Source: Psychroserpens sp.
GTDB taxonomy: Bacteria > Bacteroidota > Bacteroidia > Flavobacteriales > Flavobacteriaceae
Length of the DNA: 64,000 nucleotides
Direction: 5' to 3'
Assembly (NCBI GenBank): GCA_047612485.1
Contig: JBLGAT010000006.1
Coordinates: 4,565 to 68,564 of the forward strand
Shown here: in pieces, positions 2,891-36,325 of the stretch
How the letters are laid out: every line of letters begins with the position of its first letter
Position numbering within the stretch: the first letter of the stretch is position 1
Program-made: the position numbers and the translations under genes
Notes under the pieces: model-generated
What the model saw: the letters and a program-made list of their open reading frames with translations, nothing else
What the model was told of the DNA's origin: nothing
Database searches by the model: none

Positions 2891-4714
2891 TTACATCTCC
2901 TCATAAATAGCAGCAATTTCCACACTATATTTTTCTCTTATAACCCTTCTTTTAAGTTTTAATGTAGGTGTAAGTTCTGCCAAAGAACCATCTTCATGAA
3001 TGGGCAGCCAAGGAGTGGCTATTAGTTTAAATTTCTTTATCTGTTCAATATGACCAAATTCTGGGTTGTAGCTATCAATTACTTTCTGATATTTTCGGAT
3101 AACCCTTTCATTCCGTATCATTTCCTCTAAGGTGGTCCACTCAATTTTTTTATGGAGGCACCAATTTTTTAGTGCTTCTTCTGAAGGTAGGACCAAAGCG
3201 GAAACAAACTTTTGATTATCCCCTATTACCATCATCTGTTCAACCAAAAAATCTTCCTTGATTCGGTTTTCAATGGGTGCAGGAGCTACGTACTTTCCCC
3301 CAGAGGTTTTCAACAATTCTTTCTTCCTATCCGTAATCTTAAGAAATTCTCTTCCGTCAGGTCCTTTGATCAGTTTTCCGATATCACCTGTACAAAACCA
3401 TTTTTTACCATCAATTGTCTGGAATACCTCGGCATTTATTTCTGGTTTTTGATAGTACCCTAGCATCACGTTTGGGCCGTGGGCCATAATCTCTCCCTCG
3501 TCTTCCTTATACTCTCCTGAAGTCTTATCAATATATAACTCCACGCCGTCAATGGCATACCCGACCGTTCCAATCATTGTGCCATTTGGCTCCAAGCTAT
3601 TACCTGTTAAGGTCGGCGAGGTCTCCGTTAACCCGTAAGCTTCTCTAATAGGGATGCCTGCTGCACAAAAAACACGTAATATTTTAACGGAACAAGGGGC
3701 GGCACCAGTAATGATCTGCCTTACATTACCACCTAAAGCTGCCCTCCATTTACTAAAAATCAATGTATCGGCCACCTTCCATTTCAAACCTGCCATAATA
3801 GATAACTGCTGGTCTATCTCGTAATCATTGGTTAGGTCCAAAGCCCAAAAAAATAAATTTCTTTTTGCACCTTCCAATGCCAAACCTTTATTATAAATAG
3901 CTTCATAAATCTTTTCCAATAATCGTGGAACTGTTGTAAAAGCAACTGGACGAACCGCTACCAAATCCCCATCCGGTCCACTTAGATTGTTTGTCCCACA
4001 GAAAAACACCGATACTCCTTTAAATCAAACACAAAAAGACACGGCTCTTTCATAGATATGACATAGTGGAAGAAAACTTAATACGTTTTCTTGGGGTTTA
4101 GCAACTATTAATTCTGAGGTAGCTGTAACAACATGCATAATATTGGCATGGCTCAGCATAACTCCTTTAGGTTTTCCTGTTGTTCCCGAAGTATAGATTA
4201 TCGTAACCATATCTTCTCCCTTTATTTTGGATTGGATACTTTCCAAGCTGGAAATACCTTTGGTGTCAAAAATGGTTTCCCAAAAAGGGTTGCCGTTCAA
4301 CCCATCAAAGGTGTAAATGTGTTTTAGTGTAGCTACTACTTTTTGAGTTTCCGATAGTTTAGCATACAAATCCAATCCCCCACAGAAGGCTGCTTTTACC
4401 TCTGCTTCATTTAAAATGTATTCATATTCCGAGACACTGATTGTAGGGTATAGGGGAATACTAATCATTCCGGCCATTTGCACAGCATAGTCCATGATAA
4501 TCCATTCTGGCCTATTTTCATAGGAAACAATGGCCACCTTGTCTCCTGGCACAAGTCCTAATTTAAGTAATCCTGCTGCCGCTTGTTCCGCAGTGTCCAT
4601 TAATTTTTGGGTGCTGTAGGATTCCCAATTCCCATCGTTATTCCTTCCGCTAATGGAAGCTTCTAACGGATTATTTTTTAATTGATGATCGAGTAAATCG
4701 AAGAGTCTGGTCAT
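2891..4714 (-). pseudogene. Long-chain fatty-acid-CoA ligase (AMP-dependent synthetase) interrupted by one in-frame TGA at 4025-4027
   Basis: The two track ORFs (4025-4750, 2891-4009) share one frame: ...ERAVSFCV*FKGVSVFFCGTNN.... IYTSGTTGKPKGV lies upstream of the stop; EAYGLTET, TGDIG, ITDRKKEL and PTLKLKR lie downstream. Likely start MTRLFD at 4714; 607 codons in total. Confidence 0.85.
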
Positions 4715-4797
4715 TGGTTTGGTTTTTTTTTGACAACCCTGAATATACAAAATAAAGCGTACTGATTCATAAGGGTAGTTAAGGTATTGGTTAGGTA

Positions 4798-5262
4798 TTA
4801 TTCAAACATAATACTAATAAATTCGGCTACACAGGCAGGTTTGTCTGCCCCCTCAATTTCCACTGAGCAGTGCCATGTGATTTTGACACCATTTTCGGGA
4901 TATTCCTCAATAGCAGCAACTTTCCCATGCAATCGCAACTTGCTATCCACCAAGACGGCATTTGGAAAACGAACCTTATTCAAGCCATAATTCACTCCCA
5001 TTTTTACGGATTTAACCTGTAAAAGGTCTCCCAGCATTTTGGACAATAGGGATACCGACATAAAGCCGTGCGCAACTGGCTTTTTAAACGGGGAATATTG
5101 GGTCGCCTTTTCCACATCCACATGTATCCACTGAAAATCTAAGGTAGCCTTTGCAAAATCATTTATCATTTCCTGTGTAATGGTAATCCACTCGCCTATC
5201 GGCAATGCTTTTCCTTCGTATGTACTCAATTCCTTTAAATCATCTAAAACTAGTTTAGCCAT
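4798..5262 (-). CDS. MaoC-family (hot-dog fold) dehydratase / (R)-specific enoyl-CoA hydratase-like
   Basis: DFAKATLDFQWIHVD and AHG motifs; NYGLNKVRF. Confidence 0.88.
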   Translation of the reverse strand: MAKLVLDDLKELSTYEGKALPIGEWITITQEMINDFAKATLDFQWIHVDVEKATQYSPFKKPVAHGFMSVSLLSKMLGDLLQVKSVKMGVNYGLNKVRFPNAVLVDSKLRLHGKVAAIEEYPENGVKITWHCSVEIEGADKPACVAEFISIMFE

Positions 5263-5274
5263 TTTTTCTATCGT

Positions 5275-6012
5275 TTATCTTGAAATTCCACCATCAATGG
5301 TCAAGCAAATTCCAGAAACAAAACGTGCCTCATCAGATGCTAGGTATAAATAACCATAGGCTATATCGATAGGTTGTGCAACCGTTTTTAAGGGTATACT
5401 TGCCTTGATCGCCTCAAGGTGTTCCTCCGGAATTTTGTCGACCATATCGGTCATGGTAAAACCGGGAGCTATGGCATTTGAGGTTATACCATATTTACCC
5501 AGTTCCATGGTCCAAGTCTTGGACATGGCAATGACACCTGCTTTGGTAGCCGCATAATTCGTTTGACCAAAATTACCCCGCAATCCCACATTGGATGCCG
5601 CACTTACAATTCTTCCATATTTATTTGCCTTCATGTAAGGTGCAACTGCCTGGGTACAAATGAACACCCCTTTCAGGTTCACCTCTATAACAGCGTCAAA
5701 TTCATCCTCACTCATTTTTTCCAAGGTGCGGTCCCGTGTTATTCCGGCATTATTAATTAGGATATCAATTTTACCGTATTTGGAATTCACCTGTTCAAAG
5801 AGTGCTTCTACAGCCGATTTATTGGTTACCGAAACGGTATGGAATTCTGCCTTGCCACCGGATGCACTTATACTGTTGGCTACTTCTTGGCCTTTGGGAA
5901 GCAAATCCATGATAATCACTGTAGCACCCTCCCTTGCGAACAGTTCGGAAATGGCCTTTCCGATTCCCTGTGAACCTCCTGTTACAATCGCTATTTTATC
6001 CTTTAATCTCAT
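5275..6012 (-). CDS. SDR, 3-oxoacyl-[ACP/CoA] reductase (FabG/PhaB-like)
   Basis: TGGSQGIG, NNAGITRD, GNFGQTNYAATKAG (YxxxK). Confidence 0.88.
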   Translation of the reverse strand: MRLKDKIAIVTGGSQGIGKAISELFAREGATVIIMDLLPKGQEVANSISASGGKAEFHTVSVTNKSAVEALFEQVNSKYGKIDILINNAGITRDRTLEKMSEDEFDAVIEVNLKGVFICTQAVAPYMKANKYGRIVSAASNVGLRGNFGQTNYAATKAGVIAMSKTWTMELGKYGITSNAIAPGFTMTDMVDKIPEEHLEAIKASIPLKTVAQPIDIAYGYLYLASDEARFVSGICLTIDGGISR

Positions 6013-6178
6013 ATCTCTTAGTGTTAATTAGTTACTCGGGGTACGTTTGAAAAAATTCGATTTAAATCCTGTTCTCTACATAAACGTCGGGAACAATTCT
6101 CCTTCGAAGATCACACGAACTGACATTTCTTTATAGCCAACCAAAATGTATCACGGGTTAAATAGTTATATCATCTTT

Positions 6179-7153
6179 TCAGATTTGCACTACCATTTTC
6201 CCTTTCACCTTTCGGTTCATCATTTCTTCTAAAGCCTCTTTAGCATCTTCTAAGGGGACTATTTTATGAATATGTGGTTTTAACTTACCTTCTGCATGCC
6301 ATTGCATTAGGGTCATAGTATTGGCCATATTTTCCTTGGGGTATTTCATTGCGAATCCGCCCCAAAAAACACCAACAATAGATGCTCCTTTTAGCAAGGG
6401 CAGATTTAATGGAATCTTAGGTATTGTACCAGCCGCAAACCCTACAACCAAAAATCTACCATTCCATGCGATAGCTCTTAGTGCTTGTTCGGAAAAGTCA
6501 CCCCCAACAGGATCGTATATCACATCGACACCTTTTCCATCCGTTAGTTCCTTTAGGGTCGATTTCAAATCTTGGGTGGTATAATTAATTCCTTCATCGG
6601 CGCCATACTCCTTACAGAGTTCTAGTTTTTCTTGGGTGGACGCTGCCGCAATTACCTTGGCTCCCATTAATTTCCCTAGTTCAACAGCGGCCAGGCCAAC
6701 CCCTCCCGAGGCACCCATAACCAACAGCGTCTCCCCTTCCAGTAACTTTGCCCTATCTTTTAATGCATGGTAGGAGGTACCATAGGCCATCATAAAAGAG
6801 GCCGCTACCGGATAGTCCATTTGGGGTGGTTTAGGAAAACAAGCGTTCCCTGGCACAATAACTTCTTCCGCCAAGCCTCCATGTGCCACAAAGCCAAAAA
6901 CTTCATCACCAATTTTCAGGTGTTTCACCTCTTCCCCAATTTCTTTGACTACCCCTGCTATATCGCTTCCCGGAGTAAATGGCAGCTCCGGTTTAAATTG
7001 ATACAAGCCTTGAATGATCAGTGTATCCGGGAAATTTAATCCACAAACTTTTACTTGCACTACCACTTCCTTTGGACCTGCATGTAAGGAATCTATTTCC
7101 TCTAACTCCAAATTGGAGGGCGGACCGTATGTTTTACATCGTATTGCTTTCAT
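6179..7153 (-). CDS. NADPH:quinone oxidoreductase family (MDR)
   Basis: GLNFPD, GASGGVG; no zinc-ligand Cys cluster. Confidence 0.85.
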   Translation of the reverse strand: MKAIRCKTYGPPSNLELEEIDSLHAGPKEVVVQVKVCGLNFPDTLIIQGLYQFKPELPFTPGSDIAGVVKEIGEEVKHLKIGDEVFGFVAHGGLAEEVIVPGNACFPKPPQMDYPVAASFMMAYGTSYHALKDRAKLLEGETLLVMGASGGVGLAAVELGKLMGAKVIAAASTQEKLELCKEYGADEGINYTTQDLKSTLKELTDGKGVDVIYDPVGGDFSEQALRAIAWNGRFLVVGFAAGTIPKIPLNLPLLKGASIVGVFWGGFAMKYPKENMANTMTLMQWHAEGKLKPHIHKIVPLEDAKEALEEMMNRKVKGKMVVQI

Positions 7154-7268
7154 TACTCAACCTAATTTTACAATTACTAATTTTCCTGTTCCTACGTTCT
7201 CTCCCGAAAGTTCGGTACGCTCGAAATAACAATAGAGGCTTATGCTTTGGTTTCTAATCTCTAGAAAA

Positions 7269-8273
7269 TCAATCCTCAATAACCTTCAACACCAATTTAC
7301 CCAATTTGTCGCCAGAGAAAAGTCGGTTATACGTCTCTGGGAAGTTCTCTATCCCATCATAAATATCCTCACGAGTTTTCAACTTGCCTTCTGCCATCCA
7401 TTTGCCCATTTGTTGACCAGCTTCCCCATATCTATCGGCCCAATCAAATACCACCATCCCTTGCATAGTAGCCCTATTCACCAATAAAGAAAGGTAATTG
7501 GATGGTCCTCTCATATTTTGCTTGTTATTATACTGGGAAATCGCACCACAAATAACCACTCTTGCGTGCATTCGCAACCTTCCTAAAGCTGCGTCCAAAA
7601 TCTCCCCTCCAACATTATCAAAATAAACATCCAATCCTTTTGGACATTCTTGCTTCAACCGCTCCTTTACATCTTCATTTTTATAATCGATACATGCATC
7701 AAAACCTAAATTATCAACCACATATTTACACTTATCCGCGCCACCAGCAATGCCAATCACGTTACATCCTTTAATCTTTGCTATTTGTCCAACAATACTA
7801 CCCACTGCGCCAGCTGCTCCGGAGACTACTACTATATCCCCCTCCTTAATTTTGCCCACTTCCAAAATTCCGAAATAAGCGGTCATTCCAGGCATTCCCA
7901 AGGTGCCAATATAGGTGGGTAGCGGTGCTAACTTTGGGTCTACTTTATAATATCCTTTTCCATCCGTAGCTACGTATTGTTGAACGCCACCATGGCCTGA
8001 AATAAAATCCCCAACCCTGAACGTAGGATGATTTTTTGCTTTTATGACCTCGCCTACTGAGCCTGCGCGCATAACAGCGCCAATTTCTACCGGCGCTATA
8101 TAAGATTTTCCCTCATTCATCCATCCACGCATGGCGGGGTCAAGAGAGATATAATGATTCTTTACTAAGACCTGCCCCTCCTCTAGTTCTGGAATTGGGT
8201 TTGTTTCTAAGGACCAAGTAGAAGCATCTGCCGCTCCTACTGGTCTCTTTTCAAATATGAGTTGTTTGTTCAT
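7269..8273 (-). CDS. NADP-dependent 2-alkenal/prostaglandin reductase-like oxidoreductase (MDR)
   Basis: YISLDPAMRGWM, LGMPGMTAYFG, SGAAGAVGS, YFDNVGG, CGAISQYN. Confidence 0.88.
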   Translation of the reverse strand: MNKQLIFEKRPVGAADASTWSLETNPIPELEEGQVLVKNHYISLDPAMRGWMNEGKSYIAPVEIGAVMRAGSVGEVIKAKNHPTFRVGDFISGHGGVQQYVATDGKGYYKVDPKLAPLPTYIGTLGMPGMTAYFGILEVGKIKEGDIVVVSGAAGAVGSIVGQIAKIKGCNVIGIAGGADKCKYVVDNLGFDACIDYKNEDVKERLKQECPKGLDVYFDNVGGEILDAALGRLRMHARVVICGAISQYNNKQNMRGPSNYLSLLVNRATMQGMVVFDWADRYGEAGQQMGKWMAEGKLKTREDIYDGIENFPETYNRLFSGDKLGKLVLKVIED

Positions 8274-8287
8274 CCTAATTTATTTTT

Positions 8288-9061
8288 CTATTTTTTGTTT
8301 TTATTGGTAAAACTTTCTACATACGCCTTCATCTTGGACCTAATTTCAGGTTTCCACCACAATATGGATGCTTCTTTCAATGCGTTCTCCGCATTTAAAT
8401 CGAGTTTGTCCCATAGGTGCTTCCGCAATTTTTTCTTGGTATTTATCAAGATTTCCTGATTTGCTTTCAAGTAATGCTTCATCTGTTTTTCGGAACGTTC
8501 CAAAACGGTATCCAAGTGAACCAATTCATCTACCAGACCAGCAGCCAATGCTTCCTTTCCATTCAATAATTTACCTTCCAAAATATACCGATGTGCTAAC
8601 CCATCACCCATCCAGAAGGCATAAATTTCTGTGAGGTTTTGACTGATTTGAATATTTACGGCCACCTCGTTCAGGCCAATGACATAGGTGTCACCTTCCG
8701 CCATATAACGATTATCGCTAGTAACGGCCAAAACACATCCCCCAGCTGGAGCATGCCCCGTTATGGCTGAGATAAAAGGTTTTTTAAACTGTACCAATTG
8801 CAGATACAGCCCTCCAAAAGCGGTGAAAAATTCCTGTATTTGCTTTTCATCGTATTGATACAATTCAATCAAATCCAATCCTGCCGAAAAATAGTGAGGC
8901 TGTCCCGTTAAAATAACGCCCATAACCGCAGGGTCTTCTTCGAACTTCTTGAAAACCTCGGTTAACTCGTTCACCATCTCCAGGTTTATGGCATTTACCT
9001 TTCCCCGGATCATTTGAACAATGACATAGTTTTCCTTTTCTGTTAATTCTAATGTTTTCAT
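8288..9061 (-). CDS. Enoyl-CoA hydratase/isomerase (crotonase; delta3-delta2 isomerase-like)
   Basis: FSAGLDL, GHAPAGGC, GLNEVAVNI. Confidence 0.85.
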   Translation of the reverse strand: MKTLELTEKENYVIVQMIRGKVNAINLEMVNELTEVFKKFEEDPAVMGVILTGQPHYFSAGLDLIELYQYDEKQIQEFFTAFGGLYLQLVQFKKPFISAITGHAPAGGCVLAVTSDNRYMAEGDTYVIGLNEVAVNIQISQNLTEIYAFWMGDGLAHRYILEGKLLNGKEALAAGLVDELVHLDTVLERSEKQMKHYLKANQEILINTKKKLRKHLWDKLDLNAENALKEASILWWKPEIRSKMKAYVESFTNKNKK

Positions 9062-9070
9062 ATATTGCTT

Positions 9071-9826
9071 TTATAATGAGGTTCCTCCGTCCAAGGTTAT
9101 TGTTTGCCCGGTGATGAATTTGGAATTTTCAGAGGCCAACCAGCAAATAGCTTCCGCAATTTCCTCTGCCTCCCCAAACCTACCCATAGGTATAACCCGT
9201 TTTAACTTATCACCCATATCTGGACTTACCGAGAGTAATTGTTCCAACAATGGCGAATGTGTAAACCCAGGGCACACTGCGTTGATTCGGATTTTTTTTC
9301 TTCCATACTCCAAGGCGGCCGATTTTGTCATTCCTACTACTGCAAATTTACTAGCAGAATAAGAAAGGTTATTTCCCGAAGCCTTTAATCCCGCCAAAGA
9401 AGCAACATTCACAATATTACCATATCCCTGTTTTAGCATCTGTTGTATCGCAAGTTTCATGCAATAGAATACTCCGGTTTGGTTCACCGCAATCACATTA
9501 TGCCAGTCCTCAAGGAAATAATCGGCAGTCTTTGCTTGGTGTTTGCCTCCTATTCCAGCATTGTTCACCATGACATCCAGACGATCATGTTTCTCAATTA
9601 CGGTTTGAAGTAATTCCTTTACCTGCTCAAACTGGGTTACATCGGTTTCTATTGCTGAGGCCATTCCTCCATCATTTCGGATTTCACTTGCCACCTTTTC
9701 TGCACTTTCCAAATTGATATCAGAGACAACGACAATGGCCTTATGTGCGCCAAAAAGTTTTGCCGTGGCTGCCCCTATGCCACTACCAGCTCCTGTAATC
9801 ACCACTACTTTGTCTTTCAAATTCAT
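9071..9826 (-). CDS. SDR family oxidoreductase
   Basis: TGAGSGIG, NNAGIG, YSASK. Confidence 0.88.
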   Translation of the reverse strand: MNLKDKVVVITGAGSGIGAATAKLFGAHKAIVVVSDINLESAEKVASEIRNDGGMASAIETDVTQFEQVKELLQTVIEKHDRLDVMVNNAGIGGKHQAKTADYFLEDWHNVIAVNQTGVFYCMKLAIQQMLKQGYGNIVNVASLAGLKASGNNLSYSASKFAVVGMTKSAALEYGRKKIRINAVCPGFTHSPLLEQLLSVSPDMGDKLKRVIPMGRFGEAEEIAEAICWLASENSKFITGQTITLDGGTSL

Positions 9827-9848
9827 TTTTCCGTTTTTGCTTGATTTA

Positions 9849-10244
9849 CTATTTGTAATGAGGTGTGCAATGAATTAATCGTGAATCTTCCAATGCTTGC
9901 TCCCTTAATTCTGAAGGATATCCATCGGCCATTATCATGGTCATAAAATCGGAAACGGAATTATATTTTATGATAAGTACATCATCCCATAAGGTATCTT
10001 CTGCAGGACCTATCACCATATGCTTGGGCGATCCGTAAAACACTATTTCCGCATTCACTTTTAAAAAAAAAGGAGTCGCTTGTCGCATATATTCGGTGTA
10101 GGATTCCTTTCCCGTCATTCCCGTTTCTGGCACAAGAGCTTTATATTTTACCATATTTAGCATGACCACAGAATCCTTGGATGCGCTTTTTGCAAAGTCC
10201 GATACTTGGTCTGGATTCATGTTTAAATAGTATTGCCCGTCCAT
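9849..10244 (-). CDS. DUF1330-like small protein (dimeric alpha-beta barrel)
   Basis: VVMLNMVKYK...Y.EY...WDDVLIIKY...F..M...Y...R.QALEDSRLI pattern. Confidence 0.65.
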   Translation of the reverse strand: MDGQYYLNMNPDQVSDFAKSASKDSVVMLNMVKYKALVPETGMTGKESYTEYMRQATPFFLKVNAEIVFYGSPKHMVIGPAEDTLWDDVLIIKYNSVSDFMTMIMADGYPSELREQALEDSRLIHCTPHYK

Positions 10245-10246
10245 AG

Positions 10247-11326
10247 TTAGTATAAATTATCTATTTGATTTTTTTGAATTGCCTGCCATGCGGTATTACA
10301 ACATAAAGCAGAAGCCTTATTCAAATTCGCAAACTTGGGATCACTGGTATGGCCATGTTTATATCTGTAATAAATCTGCTGGGCAATTACCGCAATCTTA
10401 AAAAGTCCGTAAGCAAAATAAAAGGTAAGGTTATCTATATTTCTACCACTTTTTAAAGCATAGTGCTGCACAATTTCAGTTCGTGAGGGATTTCCTTTCA
10501 TAACCGTTGGGGAAGGAAGCCCTTGTTTCATAAATTCTGGGTCATCTGCCGTTGTCCAATAGGCAAGTGAAGTTCCCAAATCCATTAAAGGATCTCCAAG
10601 CGTACACATTTCCCAATCTAAAATAGCTGAAATCTTCTTCCAACTATCATCAGCAAAAACCACATTGTCATATTTGAAATCGTTGTGAATAAGGGCATGG
10701 CCATATTTTTTGGGTTGATTTTCACTCATCCACGTCATTACCTTTTGTGCTGCCGGCACTTCATCGGTTGCCGCGGCCAGATACTGCTTGCCCCAATTAT
10801 GTACCTGACGTTCTACGTACCCTTCTGGTCTTCCCAGTTCTGAAAGTCCTGCGGCTTTATAATCTATATCGTGAAATTCTGCAAAGGCATCGACCCAAGT
10901 ATCGGAAATGATTTTAAATTCCTCGGGGGAAACTTGTTTACTAAGGGCAGATGAAGCCGTTAGAATCTCGCCATTTACCTTCTCCATAATATAAAATGGA
11001 GCTCCCATAATTTTGGGATCTTCATTAAAGACATATACTTTAGGACTCTTGTCATAAACAGGGTTTAACTGCTGTAGCACCCTAAATTCACGTCCCATAT
11101 CATGCCCGCGTTTGGGCGCTGCAAAGGGCGGTCTTCGTAGGACGTATTCCTTGTCCTCAATTTGAAGTAGATAGGTTAGGTTGGAATAACCATTGGTGAA
11201 TTGTTTCACTTTCAATTCGGTATTCACCTTGGTTATTAGCGCTTGTTTTAGCAAAAAATCCTTAAGCTTAACCTCATTGATTTCCTCCCCTTCCCGTACC
11301 GGTTTTAAGTTTTTTTCGTTAGACAT
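10247..11326 (-). CDS. APH-type phosphotransferase (ACAD10/11 kinase-domain / LvaA-like)
   Basis: [47 protein letters not shown]. Confidence 0.87.
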
Positions 11327-12545
11327 TCTGTTTTTTTACATACTTGTATATCGTACTTTTTCCCAATTGACTCATATGAACTTCATCCGGACCATCGGCC
11401 AAACGTAGCGTCCGTGCCGCGGCAAAGAAATGGGCCAAGGGGGTATCACTGCCAACTCCCTTTCCGCCTAAAATCTGAATAGCTCTGTCAATAACCTTCA
11501 AGGCCATTTGGGGCGTGACTATTTTTATCATGGCAATTAAATCCTTAGCCTCTTTATTTCCTACTTTATCCATTTTATCAGCTGCGGACAACACCAACAA
11601 ACGGGTCTGTTCAATCTCACAGGCAGAAAGGGCTATATCTTGTCGTACACTACTAAAAGTATCCAAGGTTCTACCAAAAGGTTTTCTTTGCACTGTGCGT
11701 TCCGACATAATTTCCAAAGAACGTTGCGCCATACCAATCAACCGCATACAGTGATGAATACGGCCCGGACCTAAACGGCCCTGCGCTATTTCAAAACCTC
11801 TACCCTCACCTAATAGTAAATTGGATTTGGGTACGCGAACATTGTCCAAAATTATTTCAGCGTGGCCTTCCGGCGAATCGGTATACCCAAAAACACTCAG
11901 CGCTCTTTCAATCTTTAGACCTGGGGTATCCATGGGTACCAAAATCATACTCTGTTGTACATGACGCGGTGCATCAAAATTAGTCTTTCCCATCACAATG
12001 GCTATTTTGCAATTGGGGTCCATCGCACCGGAAGACCACCATTTTCTACCATTAATAATATAGTCATTCCCGTCCGAAATAATGGCGGTTTCAATGTTGG
12101 TGGCATCGGAAGAAGCAACCTCGGGCTCCGTCATTAAAAAAGCCGAACGTATTTCTCCGTTCAATAAAGGCCCCAACCATTTTTCTTGTTGTTCTAGAGT
12201 GCCATATTTGGCGAGTACCTCCATGTTTCCCGTATCGGGAGCGCTACAATTAAAGATTTCAGACGACCAGATTATGCGCCCCATGATTTCCGCCAAAGGA
12301 GCATATTCCAAATTCGAAAGCCCTGGACTAAGTTCTCCATACGAGGCAGGAAGAAAAACATTCCAAAGTCCAGCATCTTTGGCCTTTTGTTTTAAGGCTT
12401 CCATGCCAGGCCAACGTTTCCAACTATTTTCCGGATTTTGATGGAACAACTCCACCTCCTTTTCAATAGGGTGAACATAGGTTTCCATAAAATCCCTCAA
12501 TTTTTCTTGAAGTGCTATCGATTTACCGCTGTAGTCAAAATTCAT
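11319..12545 (-). CDS. Acyl-CoA dehydrogenase, ACAD10/11 (LvaC-like) subfamily
   Basis: [53 protein letters not shown]; 8-nt overlap with the kinase gene. Confidence 0.9.
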
Positions 12546-12556
12546 AGTTCATTTTA

Positions 12557-13330
12557 TTAACCCGAAATTAAATAACCTCCATCCGCAGCATACACTCCGC
12601 CTGTCATGTAAGAGCCAGCATCGGACGCCAACAACATTACTATTCCGGCCATTTCATCAGGTTCTGCCACCCTTTTCAAAGGAATGATACTGGTATATTG
12701 TGCAGCCAGTTTTTCATCGGACCACAGACTTTCACTAAATTTTGTTTTGATCAATCCTGGACAAACCACGTTGGAACGGATTCCGTATCGGCCCCACTCC
12801 TTTGCTTGGTTCTTTGTGAGCATGATCACAGCAGATTTCGTCATACTATAGAGTCCCAATCGAAATCCGGGATGTATGCCCTCTACCGATGCAATATTGA
12901 TTATACTACCACCTCCATTTGCTTTCATATACGGCTGTGCCAAATTGGAAAGTATCCAAGGTGCCTTAACGTTTACGTTCATGATTTTATCGAACACTTC
13001 TTCCCCTGCCGATTCCAATGGTCCGTAAAACGGATTTATGGCCGCGTTGTTGACCAGGATGTCTATTCTTCCATAGGCCTCCATCGTTTTGGCTATCAGT
13101 TGCTCCCTTTGGGTGGCGTCCCCAATATGACATTCGATTCCTATGGCTTCTAACCCAGCTTCATTAAACTCCTTCGCCACGGCATCAACAGCCTCTTGTT
13201 TTCTACTACTAATTACCACTTTGGCCCCGTTTTCAGCAAGACCCTTGGCTATGGAAAGTCCTATCCCCTTGCTTGATCCCGTAACGATGGCCACTTTCCC
13301 CGTTAGGTTAAATTTTGATTTTATACTCAT
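12557..13330 (-). CDS. SDR (DHRS4-like carbonyl reductase)
   Basis: TGSSKGIG, NNAAINP, YSMTK, PGLIKTKFS. Start moved to MSIKSKF (13330) because the extra 25 codons in the track ORF cover a low-complexity heptamer run. Confidence 0.85.
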   Translation of the reverse strand: MSIKSKFNLTGKVAIVTGSSKGIGLSIAKGLAENGAKVVISSRKQEAVDAVAKEFNEAGLEAIGIECHIGDATQREQLIAKTMEAYGRIDILVNNAAINPFYGPLESAGEEVFDKIMNVNVKAPWILSNLAQPYMKANGGGSIINIASVEGIHPGFRLGLYSMTKSAVIMLTKNQAKEWGRYGIRSNVVCPGLIKTKFSESLWSDEKLAAQYTSIIPLKRVAEPDEMAGIVMLLASDAGSYMTGGVYAADGGYLISG

Positions 13331-13423
13331 TTTAGTTGATTGTTGTTTGTTGTTGGCTTTTGGCTTTTGGCTCTTAAATCTATCCTTACCTATTACACTT
13401 ATCATATCTTTCGTGTTCCGAAG

Positions 13424-13447
13424 TTCTCGACTCCGCTCGAAATGACA
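13424..13447 (+). repeat. REP-like intergenic repeat TTCTCGACTCCGCTCGAAATGACA (cleanest of three related copies)
   Basis: Related TTCTC...CGAA(A/C)T(G/A)ACA elements at about 6097-6125 and 7197-7231, same orientation. Confidence 0.55.
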
Positions 13448-13468
13448 GTTTGTGTTCTTGGCTCTAAT

Positions 13469-15280
13469 TTATGCAAATACCTCCTTCTCTGTATTCAGTG
13501 TCAATGCTTGCTTGTCCATCAATATTTCGGAAAGCCCAGTTGTTTTGGGGAGTTCGTATTTAAAATAAAACTGCATGGCGTGGATTTTGTTTTCGTAGAA
13601 TTCAGCGCTAAAATTGGTATCTCCAGAGACCAATGCTCTTTGTGCTTCACGGCCAATATCCAACCATTGCCATGCAATGATGATAGTACTGAAGAATTCC
13701 ATAAAGGGTGTGGCGTCTGCCAAGAATCGCTGATAATCGCCCTTCATTGCATAACCCACAAGGGATTGCAGCACTTTTTGGGTGAGTTCCAGTTTACTGC
13801 CTAATTTCTCAGCCAACGGTTTCAACGATTCGTGCACCATACTTTCCTTGATAGAATTCATAATTTCCTCAGAGAGCAATTGCAGTGCTTTTCCATTTTC
13901 CATAGTGATTTTTCTTCCCAAAAGATCCTGGGACTGTATGCCGGTAGTACCTTCATAAATGGCCGAGATTCGGATATCCCGTAAATATTGTTGTAAAATA
14001 TAATCGGAACAAAAACCATAACCCCCTAGTACTTGTACCCCATTATTTACAGAAGTAATGCCCATTTCAGAGGGGTAGGTCTTAACTACCGGGGTCAATA
14101 TTTCCAACAACAACTTGTATTTCTCCCTACTTTCTGCATCTGGAAGCGATTGCGAAAGGTCTTGATACCGTGAAGTCAAAAAGACCAAGCTTAAAGATCC
14201 TTCTGTAATTACCTTTTGTAAAAGCAGCATTCTGCGAACATCGGGGTGATTAATGATGAGGGTTTGTTCTTGGGAGGCATCTTTTTTACCTGTACGTTGC
14301 AGCTCCCGACCCTGAGGTCTTTCTTTAGCATAGCTAACCGAGGCATGGTAGGCACCTGTAGCAATTGCAGCAGCACCTCGGCCTACAGCGATCCGTGCGC
14401 CATTCATCATTAGGAACATATACTTTAAGCCTTTATTGGGCTCACCAACCAACCAACCGGTGCAGTCTTCCTTATCCCCAAAAAACAGATGTGTGGTACA
14501 ATACCCTTTTTGACCCATTTTTTGAAAATCACCAACCGTGGTGACATCATTATCTTCCAAGTTACCGCCTTCATCTAGTCGGTTTTTTGGCACAACAAAA
14601 AGTGAAATGCCCTTGGTTCCTGCAGGCGCTCCTTTGATACGGGCCAAAACCAGATGTACAATATTTTCTACTCCTTTATAATCCCCGCCGGAAATGAATA
14701 TTTTTTGTCCGTTTATTTTATAGGAATCTCCGTCAGGCACGGCGGTTGTCACAATATCCGAGAGCGAGCTTCCTGCCTGTGGTTCAGTGAGGCACATGGT
14801 GCCGCCCCATTGCCCGGCCATCATTTTGGGTACATAGGTATCCTTAAGGAATTGATTCCCAAAATGCACAATCAATTCTGCTGCCCCGATCGTAAGGCCA
14901 ATGTAACCGGGTAAGTGATTATTGGCCGCCTCCTGAATAAAGGCAGAAGCATGTACTGCCATTGAGGGCATTTGCATGCCACCAGCCTCATAGGAGAACG
15001 GACCCGATAAAAACCCCATTTCACCGCCTTCCTTCATGTACTTGTTTACCTGTGGATGAACAATAATTTCCCCATCCTTAAAGTGGGCGGGGTTTTCATC
15101 CATCTCCCTAAAATAAGGGTAGAGTTCCTTATCTGAAAAATCCTTTACGGAGTCGAGCATCATGGCAATAGACTCCTCATCGTATTCCGAGAAGCGTTCT
15201 TGTTGCAGTACCCCCTTGATATCGTGTACGTTGAACAGTAAAAATTTAAGGGTATCCATTTCTATATAGGTATTGGCCAT
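13469..15280 (-). CDS. Long (603 aa) acyl-CoA dehydrogenase with C-terminal extension
   Basis: GTMCLTEPQAGSSL, KIFISGG, KGISLFVVPK, MMNGARI, QVLGGYGF, IYEGTTGIQ. Confidence 0.9.
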   Translation of the reverse strand: MANTYIEMDTLKFLLFNVHDIKGVLQQERFSEYDEESIAMMLDSVKDFSDKELYPYFREMDENPAHFKDGEIIVHPQVNKYMKEGGEMGFLSGPFSYEAGGMQMPSMAVHASAFIQEAANNHLPGYIGLTIGAAELIVHFGNQFLKDTYVPKMMAGQWGGTMCLTEPQAGSSLSDIVTTAVPDGDSYKINGQKIFISGGDYKGVENIVHLVLARIKGAPAGTKGISLFVVPKNRLDEGGNLEDNDVTTVGDFQKMGQKGYCTTHLFFGDKEDCTGWLVGEPNKGLKYMFLMMNGARIAVGRGAAAIATGAYHASVSYAKERPQGRELQRTGKKDASQEQTLIINHPDVRRMLLLQKVITEGSLSLVFLTSRYQDLSQSLPDAESREKYKLLLEILTPVVKTYPSEMGITSVNNGVQVLGGYGFCSDYILQQYLRDIRISAIYEGTTGIQSQDLLGRKITMENGKALQLLSEEIMNSIKESMVHESLKPLAEKLGSKLELTQKVLQSLVGYAMKGDYQRFLADATPFMEFFSTIIIAWQWLDIGREAQRALVSGDTNFSAEFYENKIHAMQFYFKYELPKTTGLSEILMDKQALTLNTEKEVFA

Positions 15281-15451
15281 AACAACTGTTTTTAAAAATT
15301 AATGCGATTGAAATTAGTATTTATTCCAAGGAATCTCGTTAAACTGGTTTAATAAAATTGAAAGATATTCCCTGATGAGATTATTGTATTTCACAGGGAA
15401 AGGTATTTACATGTTTGCAAGTCCTATGTTTATTAGACCAAACGTAAAAAA

Positions 15452-16051
15452 CTATCCCTTTCCCAAACGTTTCCTAAGTTTTGAAAGACCAACTGCAGTT
15501 AGTCCCAAATAGGAAGCAATCAAATATTGAGGCACACGCTGAAAAAGGTCGGGACGTTTTTCCAACAATCGCAAATAACGTTCCTCGTTGGTACGACTAT
15601 TAAGACGCTCCACTCTCGTGAAAATTTTCATAAACGCCTCCTGCATGGACAACCGACCAAAACGCTCCAACTGGTGCGACCTTTCAAAAGAGTTCTCAGC
15701 ATCGGATTTTTTTATAGCGTAAACTACGGTGGCCTCGGAAGCCTTTAGATAATAATTGGATGGGGTGCCCTTTACATAGGCCGGTAAATCGGTAAAAAAG
15801 ACATCGTCGGTATAAAATTCCAATACTTTTTGCTCACCTTCGTCCAACTTATAATAGTAAATACAACCTGTCGCTACATAATAAAAGTAATGAACCAATT
15901 GCCCTGGGGTTACCAACGTATCGCCCTTTTTTAGATCCATTCGTTGGTAGAATTGCATCTGTTCCTGTACCACCTTATCGTTTACCTGAGTATAAGATAA
16001 AATCTTTTGTTTTAGACTCTCAAGATGTGCTGTTTGGAATATTGTTTTCAA
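15452..16051 (-). CDS. Crp/Fnr-family transcriptional regulator (Bacteroidota type)
   Basis: cNMP-binding-like N-terminus; EERY..LL...P.L.QRVPQYLIASYLG.T...LS..R C-terminus. Confidence 0.85.
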   Translation of the reverse strand: MKTIFQTAHLESLKQKILSYTQVNDKVVQEQMQFYQRMDLKKGDTLVTPGQLVHYFYYVATGCIYYYKLDEGEQKVLEFYTDDVFFTDLPAYVKGTPSNYYLKASEATVVYAIKKSDAENSFERSHQLERFGRLSMQEAFMKIFTRVERLNSRTNEERYLRLLEKRPDLFQRVPQYLIASYLGLTAVGLSKLRKRLGKG

Positions 16052-16949
16052 GGAGTATTTTTAAATAGGAAAGAAATCCAAGATTAATATTAGCCGTTCT
16101 GCCATTGCCATTTGGTGTTTTTGAATCAGATTAACATAAGGAAAGCCTATCTTCTCGATAGAAAGTGGCATTAAGGTCTCCATTGCTGCTGTAGATTCGA
16201 ACTGATCGAAGGAAATTTTATCTCGAAACAGGAGGAGTTTTTGGAACCAGCCAAGCTCTTGGCGATGATTTCTACGTAAGATTCATTTATTTTCATAAAA
16301 AACACTAGTTTCTGCAACTGCTAAATTAAGTCAACACAAGTTCGTGAATAAAATTTAAAAACCTTATTCCCTCATTAGGTTTAATGAATTTTAATTAACG
16401 TTACAATTTCAAGCCTCATAATTTTTAGCAAAACATGCTACAACTATTCCTATAACTCATTGTAGCTGAATCCTACACTGAAAGTTTCTTCCTTTGTATA
16501 ATAGCTTGGTTCTCACGGAATAGACCTCCAAGAAAATTCAATATTAATCTGTAGCCGTATTTTAGAACCTAACATTCACCAAAACGCACACCTTTTATTT
16601 GGTATTAGAAGATATCAAATGAATGGATTTAAAACAAAAAAACAGTGATAATCATATGATTAACATTGTTTTTTTGTTACCTATTTCTAGGTGGGTAAGG
16701 GTAGCGGGATCAGCTTCCCTGAACCTTTAATGGCTTGATAATCAATAGAATCTGAAACGGGCGATTGCTCTTTTCTGTTTTTTATTTCCCTGGCTTACAA
16801 CGAAGGACTAAGTGAATATTATAAATAGGATTAAGCCTGCGGCGTGATCCTAAAGTTTTGTAGGGGCTCAACAAAAGCTTGAAACCTTCGGTTTTTTATT
16901 TTTTATTTTCCATACTTACAAAAGCAAGCTTTTGACGCTGGAAAACAAA

Positions 16950-16975
16950 AAAGCCAGACAATATTGTCTGGCTTT
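16950..16975 (-). terminator. Terminator hairpin 3' of tRNA-Pro
   Basis: Perfect inverted repeat AAAGCCAGACAATATTGTCTGGCTTT. Confidence 0.75.
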
Positions 16976-16978
16976 CGT

Positions 16979-17056
16979 TGGTCGGGGTGGCAGGATTCGA
17001 ACCTGCGGCCTCCTGCTCCCAAAGCAGGCGCGATAACCGGGCTACGCTACACCCCG
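16979..17056 (-). tRNA. tRNA-Pro(UGG) with encoded CCA
   Basis: Acceptor stem CGGGGTG/CACCCCG, anticodon arm CCTGC-TTTGGGA-GCAGG, T-loop GGTTCGAATCC, 3' ACCA. Confidence 0.97.
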
Positions 17057-17217: not shown

Positions 17218-20200
17218 TTATCTAAAGAGGGTAAAATGCCCTACATATTGTTGTTTATCCGAGTCATTGGCATTTACTACATACCAATAATCCCCTGTTG
17301 GAACTTCATTTCCTTCATATCTACCGTCCCAGCCTTTAACTTGGTCCAATATAGCAACCACCCTACCGTACCGGTCATAAATCTTGACCTCTAGATTTGG
17401 GAAAAGTTCCCGATTGCCAGGAGCCCAAACCTCGTTCATGTTATCCCCATCCGGGGTAAAGAAATTAGGCATTTCCAGTACACCTGTAAAATCGAACGGG
17501 ATGGTAATAGTAACATTACAGCCATTGGCATCTACCACTCGGATAGTCACCGTAGCATCCATATTCAGGGTAAACACGTTGTTGTCGCCTGTGGATTGCC
17601 CTTGAAAGAAATATTCGTAGTCACCAAAACCACCTGTTGCTGTTGCCGTAATTTCATTAGGCCCAGTTTTGATAGCTTCAAGTATCAAAGGATCATAAGG
17701 ATCTATGGTGAATGACACCGAAGTGGAACATCCGTTCTCATGGTACAAATACACTATATGGTCTCCGGGAGCCAAATCTCCAAATGTATAATTGGTATTG
17801 GCTAAAGCAATATCATCAACATCCAAAGAAAAAAGCAATCTGGAGAGTACGCTTGGATCCTGCATTTCCACGGTAACCGTACTATTGGGAAATATCCCTT
17901 CACAACCATATTCAGGTATAGCTGTCGCCGTAAGATCCACTCCTATTATAATTGGCATTACCACATTGGTTTCACAACCTCTGGCATCCCTAACAAAAGC
18001 TACATAAGTCTCACCTCCTACTAAATTATCAAAGAACAAGGCATCATTCCTCACAAAATCTGCTGGATCGGAAGAATTTAGGCTGGTCTCATAATATGTC
18101 TGCAACGTTACAGGGTCCACAAATGGCGTTCCCCCAGTTATGGTCAATTGGGCCGAGCCATCCATTGCATTGATACATGTTTCGGGAGTCTCAATGGAAG
18201 AAACCGTCAGCACATCTGGTTCCATAATAGTCAAAGTTTGTTTCTCAGAACATCCTTTTTCATCCAATATCAAAATTTCATATGTCCCTGCATCCAAATC
18301 ATCGAATACAAACTGTCCCGGTGTTGTTGGCTCACTAAAGAATTCGTTGAAGTTGGGAGAAATGGCGAACTGCAAAAGTCCTACCCCCCCTGACTGTACT
18401 TCAATCTCAATGGAACCATCCGATAAACCGTTACAAGACACTCCTTCGGGTCTTGCCGTGAACTGTATTGGTTCTGGTCTTAGGATTACTAATGGGCCTT
18501 TCACATCCCAACAGGTCACTCCACTGATGACACTCACATAATAATCGTTTCCGGCAGGTAACCCTTCAAAAGTACCATCATTTTGAGTAGGTCTAAACAA
18601 GGTTGCAGATGCATTTGGCGCAAATGGATCTCCTGGATCACCAACCCATAATTGGAATTGATAATTACCTACTCCACCGGCAGCAAAGGATTCAATTCTA
18701 CCATCCAGTTCCGAAGCACAAGATATATCATCAGGTAGGTTCATAACCAGATCTACATTTTCCGCATTCACCAATGTAATACCCTGGGAACGTACACTGT
18801 TACAAACATTCAATCCCAAAACATCTTTTTTACGGATATCGTATTGATAAAACCCGGGACCTACCGTAATCAATACCGAAGTACCGGCCATATCCATAAA
18901 GGTATCTGTGGGTAAGGCATTAAAAGCTCTGTATTCGTATACATACCCAACTTCAGGGTTTTCTACACTTAATCGTATTTGGCCCTGTCCCCCACAACCA
19001 GGTGCTTGCACCTGCACCAATTTAGGATCAATTGGTGGTGGTGGGTTTACAAAATAAGGCACTGTTGCCCCTATACAAGCAAAACCTGAAGAAATCTCAA
19101 TCGCATACCAGCCAGAGCTTATATAACCGCCTGATAACCCAACAAAGGTTGGCAAATCTTGCAACCCACTGGTAGATACAACATCCGTGTTATCGTTACT
19201 CCCCAAATACAACAATCTGTACTTGTATCCTGCTCCGGGAACACCTCCAGATGCGCCCGCTAAGGCTGTAAGGATAGTACCCGTAGTTGTATCATAAGCC
19301 TCCAATACGGCATTGTTTCCTCCAGGACATATCAATGCCTGTGGCTCTCTTATACCTGCTATAATTGGAGCAATAGGGTTTAATTGGATATCCATGGTTG
19401 CTTCGCACCCTTCTATATCCCTTACCGTTATCCTATAATTTCCACTGGATAAATTTTCAAATTCATTGTTCGGTCCTGAAGCTACTATTGCAACAAAGGC
19501 ACCACTGCCAGCTGGGCTTTCTATGTCCAGACTAAAATCATAAGGCGCTATGTCCCATCCCCCTTGGGCGGTTGCCTGGATTTTACCAAGATTATCATCA
19601 CAACTTACATTACCTAGTTCTAAGGCTGTTAAAGTAAGCGGTCCACTAGGACTTCTTATCGTAGCCACATTGCTATTTCCTGAACAATATGGTAAATCCT
19701 CAGAGGTAACGACCACATAGAAATTACCCCCTGGGAGTCCCGTAATGGTTTCGGGATTGTTGGCAGTATGAAAACTACCGGTAGCCAAAGAGATAGAAGC
19801 TGTCAAATCAAGGCTGCTATAGACATTATAGGTATAGTTCCCTGTATAATCCGTTACCGTAATGTCCATTTCTCCGTCGTCCACACCAAAACATTGGATT
19901 GGTTTAAATTCACTTATGACAACAGCGGGGGCTATTGGCTCATCCACGGTATGTTTTGGCATAGGATAGGTACAACCACCTATATTGTCGGTTATCTCAA
20001 AAAGATAGTCTCCGGCAATTGGCAAATCGATCAGTGCAAAACTATTGCCCACAACAACTACAGGTGCCACAGGAACGATAGAATTTGTGGTGACCGTAAA
20101 GCTTGTTGTTCCCAAAACATCGATCCGAACTTGCTCTGGATCTCTACAATCCAGATCTCGAATAACGCTCAGCGTAGGTACCACATCCGTAGGTGGATTA

Positions 20201-35992: not shown

Positions 35993-36325
35993 ATGGGCCT
36001 AAAAGAACTGAAAAAGAAAAAATGGTTTGGTATCGCGACCAATATGTATATGTTGGTGCTCACCGCATTTTTGATTTGGATGATCTTTTTTGATACCAAT
36101 TCCCTCTTTATCCATTGGGAACTAAAAAAGGAAATTAAAAAATTGGAGAAGCAAAAGGAATTCTTGCAGGAAGAGATCGAAAATGACAAAGAGACGATAG
36201 AAAAGCTATCCGACAAAAAGGAACTTGAAAAATTTGCCCGGGAGAAATATTACCTCAAGAAAAAGAACGAGGATATATATTTGATAGAATACGAGGACAG
36301 CCTAAAAAACAAAAAAGATGAGTAA
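35993..36325 (+). CDS. FtsB/DivIC septum formation initiator
   Basis: N-terminal TM, coiled coil, LEKFAREKY.LKK.NE. Confidence 0.8.
   Translation: MGLKELKKKKWFGIATNMYMLVLTAFLIWMIFFDTNSLFIHWELKKEIKKLEKQKEFLQEEIENDKETIEKLSDKKELEKFAREKYYLKKKNEDIYLIEYEDSLKNKKDE

Follow-up and report, generated by a model that had tools for sequence, protein, structure and literature searches.

A candidate Crp/Fnr-controlled, horizontally transferable auxiliary beta-oxidation cluster around an unfused ACAD10/ACAD11-type enzyme pair in Bacteroidota

What does a flavobacterium do with a kinase of the aminoglycoside phosphotransferase (APH) fold whose gene overlaps that of an atypical acyl-CoA dehydrogenase (ACAD) amid genes for fatty acid breakdown? 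The question arises from a 64,000-nucleotide (nt) stretch of Psychroserpens sp. (assembly GCA_047612485.1, contig JBLGAT010000006.1, positions 4,565 to 68,564 of the forward strand), hereafter "the window", with positions counted from its first letter. The source genome measures 2.99 Mb in 160 contigs, is 90% complete and carries 29 tRNAs. Open reading frame (ORF) listing together with Pfam and NCBIfam scans placed 13 co-oriented genes on the minus strand of the window between 2891 and 16051 (Table 1). An earlier note, made from the letters alone, had read these genes as a self-contained pathway of the Lva/ACAD10-11 type for 4-hydroxy and 4-oxo fatty acids; of this reading the enzyme families stood, while the self-containment did not. 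We consider it likely (probability roughly 0.65) that these genes form an auxiliary beta-oxidation cluster, under Crp/Fnr control and transferable horizontally, that is arranged around the unfused bacterial form of ACAD10/ACAD11.

The atypical ACAD (408 amino acids [aa]) carries the first part of this answer. Searched against all PDB chains, it matched human ACAD11 (2wbi) with 443 bits and mouse ACAD11 (8v3u) with 438, whereas the best match among ordinary ACADs reached 134 bits. In mouse ACAD11 the 4-phospho group is held by R626, H634 and R637, D753 serves as catalytic base, and mutating these residues abolishes turnover of the 4-phosphoacyl-CoA intermediate (PMC12440821). All four are kept in the window: R626, H634 and R637 lie on one helix, and the catalytic Asp (D753) stands in a LADGPDEVH segment identical to that of ACAD11. 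The window ACAD, human and mouse ACAD11 and 12 of 13 aligned Bacteroidota relatives share an unchanged 14-residue phosphate-binding motif. One copy of a more distant ACAD, here called type B (50-54% identity; a bare ACAD-kinase pair found elsewhere in Bacteroidota), reads HHSMR yet retains R626, H634 and R637. At the position of the catalytic base, the genome's five other ACADs and the cluster's own 603-aa ACAD read YEGT, YAGT or GGGT, the usual YEGT-type motif. In a small tree whose references were the remaining ACADs of the genome and ACAD11 of human and mouse (as aligned in the PDB search), the window ACAD and its Bacteroidota relatives grouped with ACAD11 against the genome's own ACADs with a support of 0.98. 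Its placement in the ACAD10/ACAD11/LvaC subfamily rather than among medium-chain ACADs, as the earlier note had proposed, is thus as secure as sequence allows, and we propose that it is a 4-phosphoacyl-CoA phosphate eliminase yielding 2-enoyl-CoA.

The kinase gene overlaps the ACAD gene by 8 nt (11319-11326), as previously described, and an APH-type kinase gene is adjacent to the ACAD gene in all of the about 60 type-A and type-B loci examined; in this genome both proteins are present as single copies. The best PDB match of the kinase was 9o56 (309 bits), followed by 3dxp and then by the kinase domain of mouse ACAD11 (157 bits). From the description in a 2026 preprint (10.1101/2025.09.10.675409), 9o56 appears to be the ACAD10-type kinase of Caldalkalibacillus thermarum. 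Alignment with 9o56 and mouse ACAD11 showed that VLRR, REF, veRqv (the R176 equivalent), HNDFK..DN and DWE are retained, so that the core comprises an Arg at the position of the beta3 Lys, the alphaC Glu and the Arg next to it, the HxDxK..N loop (HNDFKYDN) and the LDWE metal motif. As to the arginines that contact CoA, a window segment aligns with "gyckRqvstw" (R176) and "gREf" aligns with "dREf" of mouse ACAD11; the assignment of R86 is approximate, as the numbering of the paper does not exactly match that of the chain. Residue roles were taken from PMC12440821 and from the preprint (10.1101/2025.09.10.675409). By scores and catalytic residues alike, the kinase belongs with the ACAD10/11-type kinases, and its proposed reaction is phosphorylation of the 4-hydroxyl of 4-hydroxyacyl-CoA.

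For the pair as a whole, action on 4-hydroxyacyl-CoA (phosphorylation followed by FAD-dependent elimination of phosphate to give 2-enoyl-CoA) seems to us probable. Pairs from Pseudomonas and Burkholderia have been assayed for exactly these two reactions (PMC11342911), and in vitro the Burkholderia pseudomallei kinase (Q63VL0) and ACAD replace the domains of ACAD10 (PMC11342911). Judged by description, this unfused pair of the ACAD10-like branch is the nearest biochemically tested bacterial analogue, although it belongs to a different phylum. The combination of kinase and ACAD is already known as such and is no rarity among bacteria, its central chemistry being established in Proteobacteria and mammals, and what is new here is narrower than the earlier note implied: the phylum, the lack of a phosphatase or a recognisable LvaB, a DUF1330-like gene, seven further enzymes, a Crp-like regulator with its operator and a recent 13-kb spread. 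As none of the 13 cluster products matched a His_Phos or HAD family, the cluster represents a phosphatase-less variant of the kinase/ACAD module.

The arrangement recurs well beyond the window. Fifty loci were drawn from a scan with the kinase (one genome per species) and searched by tblastn with all cluster proteins; the order from regulator to ligase (12-13 genes) was kept in about 40 of them. Identical gene order in some 40 independent Bacteroidota loci makes a chance arrangement untenable, and the synteny survey that the earlier note had proposed came out strongly positive. Carrier genera include Sediminicola, Maribacter, Zobellia, Croceivirga, Cellulophaga, Lutibacter, Lacinutrix, Subsaximicrobium, Urechidicola, Eudoraea, Muriicola and Cerina, and the cluster is also found in metagenome-assembled genomes (MAGs) labelled Pseudopedobacter, Pelobium and Chitinophagales. 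Its invariant core consists of the large ACAD, the first of three short-chain dehydrogenases/reductases (SDR1), the atypical ACAD, the kinase and SDR2; Neolewinella antarctica retains only SDR1, ACAD and kinase. Distribution is patchy: the ACAD type occurred in 10 of 401 evenly sampled Bacteroidota genomes and in 32 of 401 Flavobacteriaceae genomes (8%; 27 of 302 genera), and two other species of the genus of the window are without it. No published description of such a cluster in this phylum was found, in agreement with the earlier statement that no characterised example was known; a proteomic study of diatom polyunsaturated aldehydes (PMC13290949) treats beta-oxidation in general terms and draws no link to the cluster.

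Comparison of cluster proteins with housekeeping proteins separates descent from transfer. Sediminicola arcticus is a true close relative, with housekeeping proteins 92-95% and cluster proteins 88-97% identical. In Maribacter arcticus and M. orientalis the cluster proteins are 90-97% identical, against 72-73% for MutL, 77% for methylmalonyl-CoA mutase and 58% for NagB-PIG-L; in Subsaximicrobium wynnwilliamsii 84-95%, against 66% (MutL) and 80% (methylmalonyl-CoA mutase); and in Neolewinella antarctica, a member of a different class, 80-87%, against 57% and 69%, respectively. Zobellia and M. antarcticus showed no such excess of cluster over housekeeping identity. At the nucleotide level the match to M. 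arcticus extends for about 13 kb with 85-90% identity and ends at the cluster borders. In a tree of ACAD plus kinase, these taxa form, together with MAGs of Lutibacter, Cellulophaga, Pseudopedobacter and Pelobium, a tight clade nested in Flavobacteriaceae; Sphingobacteriales MAGs and Neolewinella fall inside a flavobacterial clade. Cluster identities so far above those of housekeeping genes indicate recent horizontal transfer, and the comparisons point to movement of the whole cluster among cold-water Bacteroidota, the recently transferred clade consisting mostly of polar or cold-water isolates. No integrase or transposase was present in the flanks examined of the cluster loci.

Regulation would lie with the 199-aa protein encoded at the head of the cluster, which combines a sensor domain resembling those that bind cyclic nucleotides with a C-terminal helix-turn-helix whose recognition helix is typical of the Crp family (…RVPQYLIASYLGLTAVGLSKLRKRL). 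A Crp/Fnr gene stands beside the cluster in 26 related loci. An alignment of the upstream regions of 23 loci revealed, amid diverged flanks, a 14-bp palindrome (TTAAAC-N2-GTTTAA, often ATTAAAC-N2-GTTTAAT), the exact copy of which is unique in the 2.99-Mb genome. Measured back from the ATG that starts the first structural gene, its first base in transcription order is at 72 nt and its centre at about 65 nt; across loci it is located 63-75 nt before the ATG in 30 of 38 cases, 26 of these being perfect. Every one of the 26 loci with the Crp gene has the palindrome, and 8 of the 12 loci without that gene are missing it (Fisher p = 1e-5, the loci being related to one another). With its centre about 28 nt upstream of a TAnnTT-type -7-like box, its spacing would suit an activator position resembling class II, and the Crp-like protein may thus regulate the cluster through this candidate operator.

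Around the core pair, the inventory given in the earlier note (three SDRs, a CoA ligase, a crotonase, a MaoC protein, a second ACAD, two medium-chain dehydrogenases/reductases [MDRs] and a Crp/Fnr regulator) matched the Pfam and NCBIfam results exactly. The 603-aa ACAD is closest to the FadE5, Pseudomonas aeruginosa FadE and DmdC type (PDB 8pns, 8r1e, 6ijc and 6kpt, 260-319 bits) and has the canonical catalytic Glu (YEGT). SDR1 is closest to DHRS4, a peroxisomal NADPH carbonyl reductase (PDB 2zat, 221 bits; NCBIfam PRK07035, 303 bits), and its gene immediately precedes that of the atypical ACAD in all type-A loci, the three-gene core of Neolewinella among them. Its true start is probably near 13330 (257 aa), judging from the 257-aa ORF in the closest relative (locus L001), and its most likely role is that of a 4-oxoacyl-CoA reductase feeding the kinase, as in the LvaD step. 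SDR2 is likewise found in every type-A locus; its PDB matches are generic, among them the (3R)-hydroxyacyl-CoA dehydrogenase domain 2et6, and it may interconvert hydroxyl and oxo groups on the acyl chain. SDR3 falls just below the FabG equivalog score (TIGR01830, 272 bits; cut-off 298), and the MaoC protein is closest to the R-specific hydratase Rv0130 (PDB 2c2i, 125 bits); SDR3 would be a 3-oxoacyl reductase/3-hydroxyacyl dehydrogenase, which together with MaoC resembles a split MFE-2. The crotonase-fold protein is closest to mitochondrial delta3,delta2-enoyl-CoA isomerase (ECI1; 1xx4 at 116 and 1sg4 at 92 bits, as against at most 76 bits for hydratases) and is dispensable, having been lost in six loci (L006, L007, L038, L040, L043 and L047). 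One MDR, with 397 bits to NCBIfam CurA (cut-off 440) and 234 bits to TIGR02825 (leukotriene B4 12-hydroxydehydrogenase/PTGR1), is of the CurA/PTGR1 ene-reductase type (2-alkenal/one reductase), and the other matches TIGR02824 (242 bits) and PDB 4eye (230 bits) and 1yb5 (154 bits). Together the accessory genes fit what might be a helper route for oxygenated or unsaturated fatty acids, although the individual roles given to them here are tentative and, in our view, somewhat less likely right than wrong.

The 131-aa protein whose gene starts 2 nt after that of the kinase was placed through its predicted structure. It is conserved in at least 21 loci with 27 invariant residues and missing from about a third of related loci. 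An AlphaFold2 model (pLDDT 76) gave as best Foldseek match 3dca (RPA0582, a protein of unknown function; E = 1.7e-10, TM = 0.80), followed by further proteins of the DUF1330 and dimeric alpha/beta-barrel kinds; relatives detected with a profile match PF07045, and about 1200 related clusters exist. By its model it is a DUF1330-like dimeric alpha/beta-barrel protein, and it could be either a partner of the kinase or a small-molecule enzyme of the isomerase type. Neighbourhoods of distant DUF1330-like relatives are mixed (after an atypical histidine phosphatase, before two ordinary ACADs, beside a response regulator) and yielded no firm rule. On one metagenome contig (L068, 138-2796) such a relative (E = 4e-33 to the profile) directly follows the atypical histidine phosphatase (RHAQASF…SGG) and precedes an acyl-CoA carboxyltransferase.

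In the window the acyl-CoA ligase is broken by a single in-frame TGA at 4025-4027 (minus strand), owing to which it was listed as two ORFs. The two halves share a frame; in Pfam one matches positions 4-224 of the AMP-binding domain and the other positions 252-384 together with the C-terminal domain. The start is probably the ATG near 4714. Where four close relatives have TGT TAT TGC TTT, the window has TGT GTT TGA TTT, so that the preceding codon differs as well. A selenocysteine reading was rejected, as the residue aligned to the TGA in 27 relatives varies (Cys, Tyr, Ile, Val, Ser or Thr) and no tRNA-Sec was found among the 29 tRNAs of the 90%-complete genome. With sense codons in the relatives, an intact ligase ORF of 607 aa in S. 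arcticus and no tRNA-Sec, the TGA is to be regarded as a recent nonsense change or an assembly error. The genome has two paralogous long-chain ligases elsewhere, either of which may take over the step, and in P. putida the ligase of the cluster is dispensable (PMC6692424). The broken ligase, and the fact that neither thiolase nor transporter is encoded in the cluster, are why the description of a self-contained module had to be given up.

Under the reading we prefer, the proteins would act in the following order. The long-chain ligase would form the acyl-CoA; the APH-type kinase would phosphorylate the 4-hydroxyl of 4-hydroxyacyl-CoA; and the Asp-based ACAD, with transient use of FAD, would eliminate the phosphate to leave a 2-enoyl-CoA fit for ordinary beta-oxidation. 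The DHRS4-like SDR1 would reduce 4-oxoacyl-CoA and so feed the kinase in the manner of LvaD. SDR2 and both MDRs could turn allylic 4-hydroxy- and 4-oxo-2-enoyl intermediates, expected from the shortening of lipoxygenase-type or even-position hydroxy fatty acids, into saturated 4-hydroxyacyl-CoA, a step modelled on the logic of 15-hydroxyprostaglandin dehydrogenase, PTGR1 and carbonyl reductase. In animals these three enzymes saturate allylic hydroxy-enoic lipids, and peroxisomal MFE-2 serves R-specific beta-oxidation. The likeness is one of logic only, SDR2 having no specific similarity to 15-hydroxyprostaglandin dehydrogenase. The isomerase, MaoC with the FabG-like SDR3 and the FadE5-like ACAD might then run further cycles on unsaturated chains, with thiolase supplied from elsewhere in the genome. 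Algal oxylipins, which the earlier note had mentioned, are a guess at the substrate.

The closest known system is the lva operon of P. putida KT2440 (LvaA kinase, LvaB, the ACAD-like LvaC, the SDR LvaD and the ligase LvaE), described by Rand et al. 2017 and known here through PMC6692424 and PMC11342911. By description the two have in common a separate kinase beside an ACAD10/11-type flavoenzyme, an adjacent SDR, a ligase in the same direction and the proposed chemistry from 4-oxo through 4-hydroxy and 4-phospho to enoyl-CoA. They differ in that the kinase here is on the ACAD10-like branch, whereas LvaA is only 29% identical to ACAD10/11 kinase domains (PMC11342911); that there is no recognisable 12-kDa LvaB (a distinction drawn by description), a DUF1330-like protein following the kinase instead; that the ligase is of the long-chain type (607 aa in relatives); that the regulator is Crp/Fnr-like and on the same strand; and that seven extra enzymes are present (two MDRs, two SDRs, the isomerase, MaoC and the FadE5-like ACAD). 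The present cluster is from Bacteroidota, whereas lvaABCD homologues have been reported from Alpha-, Beta- and Gammaproteobacteria (PMC6692424). With mammalian ACAD10/ACAD11 (8v3u, 8v3v, 2wbi) the likeness extends to the ACAD domain (438-443 bits, about 60% identity as estimated by eye rather than computed), identical phosphate-binding and catalytic motifs and the same catalytic and CoA-contact residues in the kinase; here, however, there are two genes that are not fused, no HAD phosphatase domain and a bacterial cluster with its own regulator.

Several points weigh against our interpretation. The closest solved relative of the kinase, 9o56, seems to come from a study of 1-O-alkylglycerol kinases. 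With the in-frame TGA, the ligase-dependent first step is possibly defective in this genome. The roles of SDR2, SDR3 and both MDRs are suggested by broad family resemblance. The cluster holds no thiolase, transporter, aldehyde dehydrogenase or lactonase, so that its genes do not fix the entry substrate. The evidence for transfer comes partly from MAGs, which can be mis-binned; that argument is carried by the isolates M. arcticus, M. orientalis, Subsaximicrobium, Lacinutrix and Neolewinella.

Among other explanations, the one that survives best, though we think it unlikely, is detoxification of electrophiles: the MDRs and SDRs would quench enals and enones (4-hydroxy-2-alkenals, 4-oxo-alkenals, polyunsaturated aldehydes) from the peroxidation of the cell's own or algal lipids, and the kinase and ACAD would clear the residue. 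Two ene-reductase-type MDRs, one of them near the CurA/PTGR1 equivalog score, and a DHRS4-like carbonyl reductase would suit such a task, as would the fact that uptake genes (SusC/SusD or others) are missing, an unusual trait in a nutrient locus of Bacteroidota. The recently transferred clade is also dominated by polar and cold-water isolates. Such habitats bring high membrane unsaturation and oxidative load. Yet the cluster has no aldehyde dehydrogenase or glutathione transferase, and its ligase, two ACADs, hydratase, dehydrogenase and isomerase make up a catabolic set; in any case this explanation overlaps the catabolic reading rather than opposing it.

Salvage of ether lipids or monoglycerides is a weaker candidate, and we give it little credence. 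Here the kinase would be an acyl-CoA-activated 1-O-alkylglycerol or monoacylglycerol kinase and the cluster would handle glycerol-ether lipids. According to the 2026 preprint, ACAD10 and several prokaryotic kinase homologues phosphorylate 1-O-alkylglycerols in vitro with stimulation by acetyl-CoA; chimyl alcohol is phosphorylated by the prokaryotic homologues, and the structure of the C. thermarum kinase was solved (10.1101/2025.09.10.675409). It is this protein, a reported alkylglycerol kinase, that 9o56 apparently represents; the window kinase shares with it R(beta3), E(alphaC), HxDxK, N and DWE, and yet no such lipid context is apparent in the cluster. Two faint hints in the same direction come from other carriers: a YhhN-family gene between the regulator and the first structural gene in Maribacter arcticus, and a gene for a patatin-like lipase after the Neolewinella core. 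YhhN proteins form a lysoplasmalogenase family. Against this, the kinase is translationally coupled to an ACAD with intact residues of the phospho-acyl-CoA pocket, the cluster contains no glycerolipid acyltransferase, phosphatase or AGPS-like gene, and all other genes act on acyl-CoA or on carbonyl and enone groups; the preprint itself leaves the relation of the two kinase activities open (10.1101/2025.09.10.675409). That the cluster merely provides a second copy of general beta-oxidation for common long-chain or unsaturated fatty acids, with the ACAD10/11-type pair as a passenger of minor or unrelated role, is very improbable: although the functions of ligase, FadE5-like ACAD, hydratase, dehydrogenase and isomerase belong to ordinary beta-oxidation, the trio of ACAD, kinase and SDR1 is invariant and is retained when the cluster shrinks (Neolewinella; type-B pairs), no thiolase is included, the operator is unique to the cluster, and ACAD10/11 are inactive on unsubstituted acyl-CoAs (PMC12440821).

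If the cluster is indeed an auxiliary beta-oxidation system, it extends to marine Bacteroidota, major degraders of algal matter, the core of a kinase-plus-eliminase route for 4-hydroxy acids that has been worked out only in Pseudomonas, Burkholderia and mammals, and its accessory set suggests oxo-, hydroxy- and enone-bearing fatty acids as natural substrates rather than levulinate. In the dispute over the substrate of ACAD10-type kinases (4-hydroxyacyl-CoA versus alkylglycerols), the gene context here favours 4-hydroxyacyl-CoA. Being rare and recently exchanged, with one regulator and one clear operator, the cluster is a tidy system in which to identify substrate and inducer, and through it the function of a DUF1330-family protein could be tested. 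A bolder version, which we hold to be possible though doubtful, is a mobile, self-regulated "oxygenated-lipid island" crossing family and class borders in cold-water Bacteroidota, for fatty acids stalled at the 4-hydroxy, 4-oxo or 4-hydroxy-2-enoyl stage. With it, carriers might burn or disarm lipoxygenase-type and peroxidation-derived fatty acids through a relay of SDR oxidation, PTGR1-like ene-reduction, DHRS4-like re-reduction, phosphorylation and flavin-dependent phosphate elimination; the DUF1330-like barrel might be a novel part devoted to this route, in the place that a phosphatase or LvaB takes in other lineages, and the Crp-like protein might sense an oxidised lipid or acyl-CoA.

Table 1. 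Genes of the cluster in the window, with its candidate operator and the adjoining tRNA, in order of transcription of the cluster.
Feature	Position	Strand	Evidence
Crp/Fnr-type regulator, 199 aa, TTG start	15452-16051	-	Pfam PF00027, 1.7e-10
Candidate operator TTAAAC-N2-GTTTAA	15339-15352		conserved perfect palindrome
FadE5-like ACAD, 603 aa	13469-15280	-	Pfam ACAD N/M/1 domains plus PF12806
SDR1, DHRS4-like	12557-13405	-	PDB 2zat 221 bits; NCBIfam PRK07035 303 bits
ACAD10/ACAD11/LvaC-type flavoenzyme, 408 aa	11319-12545	-	443 bits to human ACAD11; LADGPDEVH
APH-fold kinase, ACAD10/11 type, 359 aa	10247-11326	-	Pfam APH 5e-43; HNDFKYDN, LDWE
DUF1330-like protein, 131 aa	9849-10244	-	no significant Pfam match; predicted structure
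SDR2, classical SDR, 251 aa	9071-9826	-	Pfam adh_short
Crotonase-fold protein	8288-9061	-	PDB 1xx4 116 bits, 1sg4 92 bits
CurA/PTGR1-like MDR	7269-8273	-	NCBIfam CurA, TIGR02825; Pfam ADH_N_2
Quinone-oxidoreductase-like MDR (PIG3/zeta-crystallin type)	6179-7153	-	TIGR02824 242 bits
SDR3, FabG-like	5275-6012	-	TIGR01830 272 bits (cut-off 298)
MaoC-type R-specific enoyl-CoA hydratase, 154 aa	4798-5262	-	Pfam MaoC_dehydratas
Long-chain (ACSL/FadD11-like) acyl-CoA ligase, interrupted	2891-4750	-	AMP-binding domain
tRNA-Pro(TGG), directly upstream of cluster	16979-17056	-	Rfam tRNA 69 bits; ARAGORN

Intergenic gaps within the cluster are mostly 2-63 nt, with four larger ones (171, 166, 115 and 47-83 nt). 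In the M. arcticus locus (L002, 4200-4859), the YhhN-family gene and a second ORF occupy the opposite strand between the regulator and the large ACAD, and a gap of equal size separates crp from the large ACAD in locus L004. The genome has no oleate hydratase of the MCRA family, which would be an endogenous source of mid-chain hydroxy acids. A 31-nt direct repeat bracketing the cluster (2436-2466 and 16897-16927) was not counted, being only 71% identical and AT-rich.

The tRNA-Pro(TGG) forms the upstream border of the cluster and may be an integration landmark. A strong terminator-like hairpin with a T-run (16949-16976) lies 3' of it; this was the sole notable item of a sigma-70 promoter and terminator scan, the counts of which equalled the shuffled expectation. 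A tRNA adjoins the cluster in four loci of the recently transferred clade, namely the window, S. arcticus (L001, 18714-18788), M. orientalis (L004, 2617-2691) and a Lutibacter MAG (L006, 4207-4388); the tRNAs are Pro-TGG, Pro-GGG, Gly and Leu, and side and identity vary among the loci. An Rfam search of 1-27000 returned no riboswitch or other RNA family besides tRNA, and a 93-nt tRNA-Pro(AGG) called by ARAGORN inside the CurA-like gene (7526-7618) found no confirmation there and is most likely a false positive. Between the regulator gene and the tRNA, about 580 nt upstream of the former, stands a 46-nt perfect-centre palindrome (16633-16678) of two 23-nt arms, 91% complementary and without a spacer.

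The tRNA-Pro gene and the hairpin with its T-run separate the cluster from a gene at 17218-25725, directly upstream, for a 2835-aa protein with SprB repeats and a CHU_C signal for the type IX secretion system, a giant surface protein of the gliding-motility or adhesin type. On the other side, 1.1 kb downstream of the ligase and on the same strand, is an Hsp20 small heat-shock gene (1327-1773), which has no counterpart beside the cluster in any related locus. Methylmalonyl-CoA mutase, with both its subunits, is encoded at 36318-39846, 20 kb from the cluster, and the genome is therefore able to route propionyl-CoA from odd-chain products.

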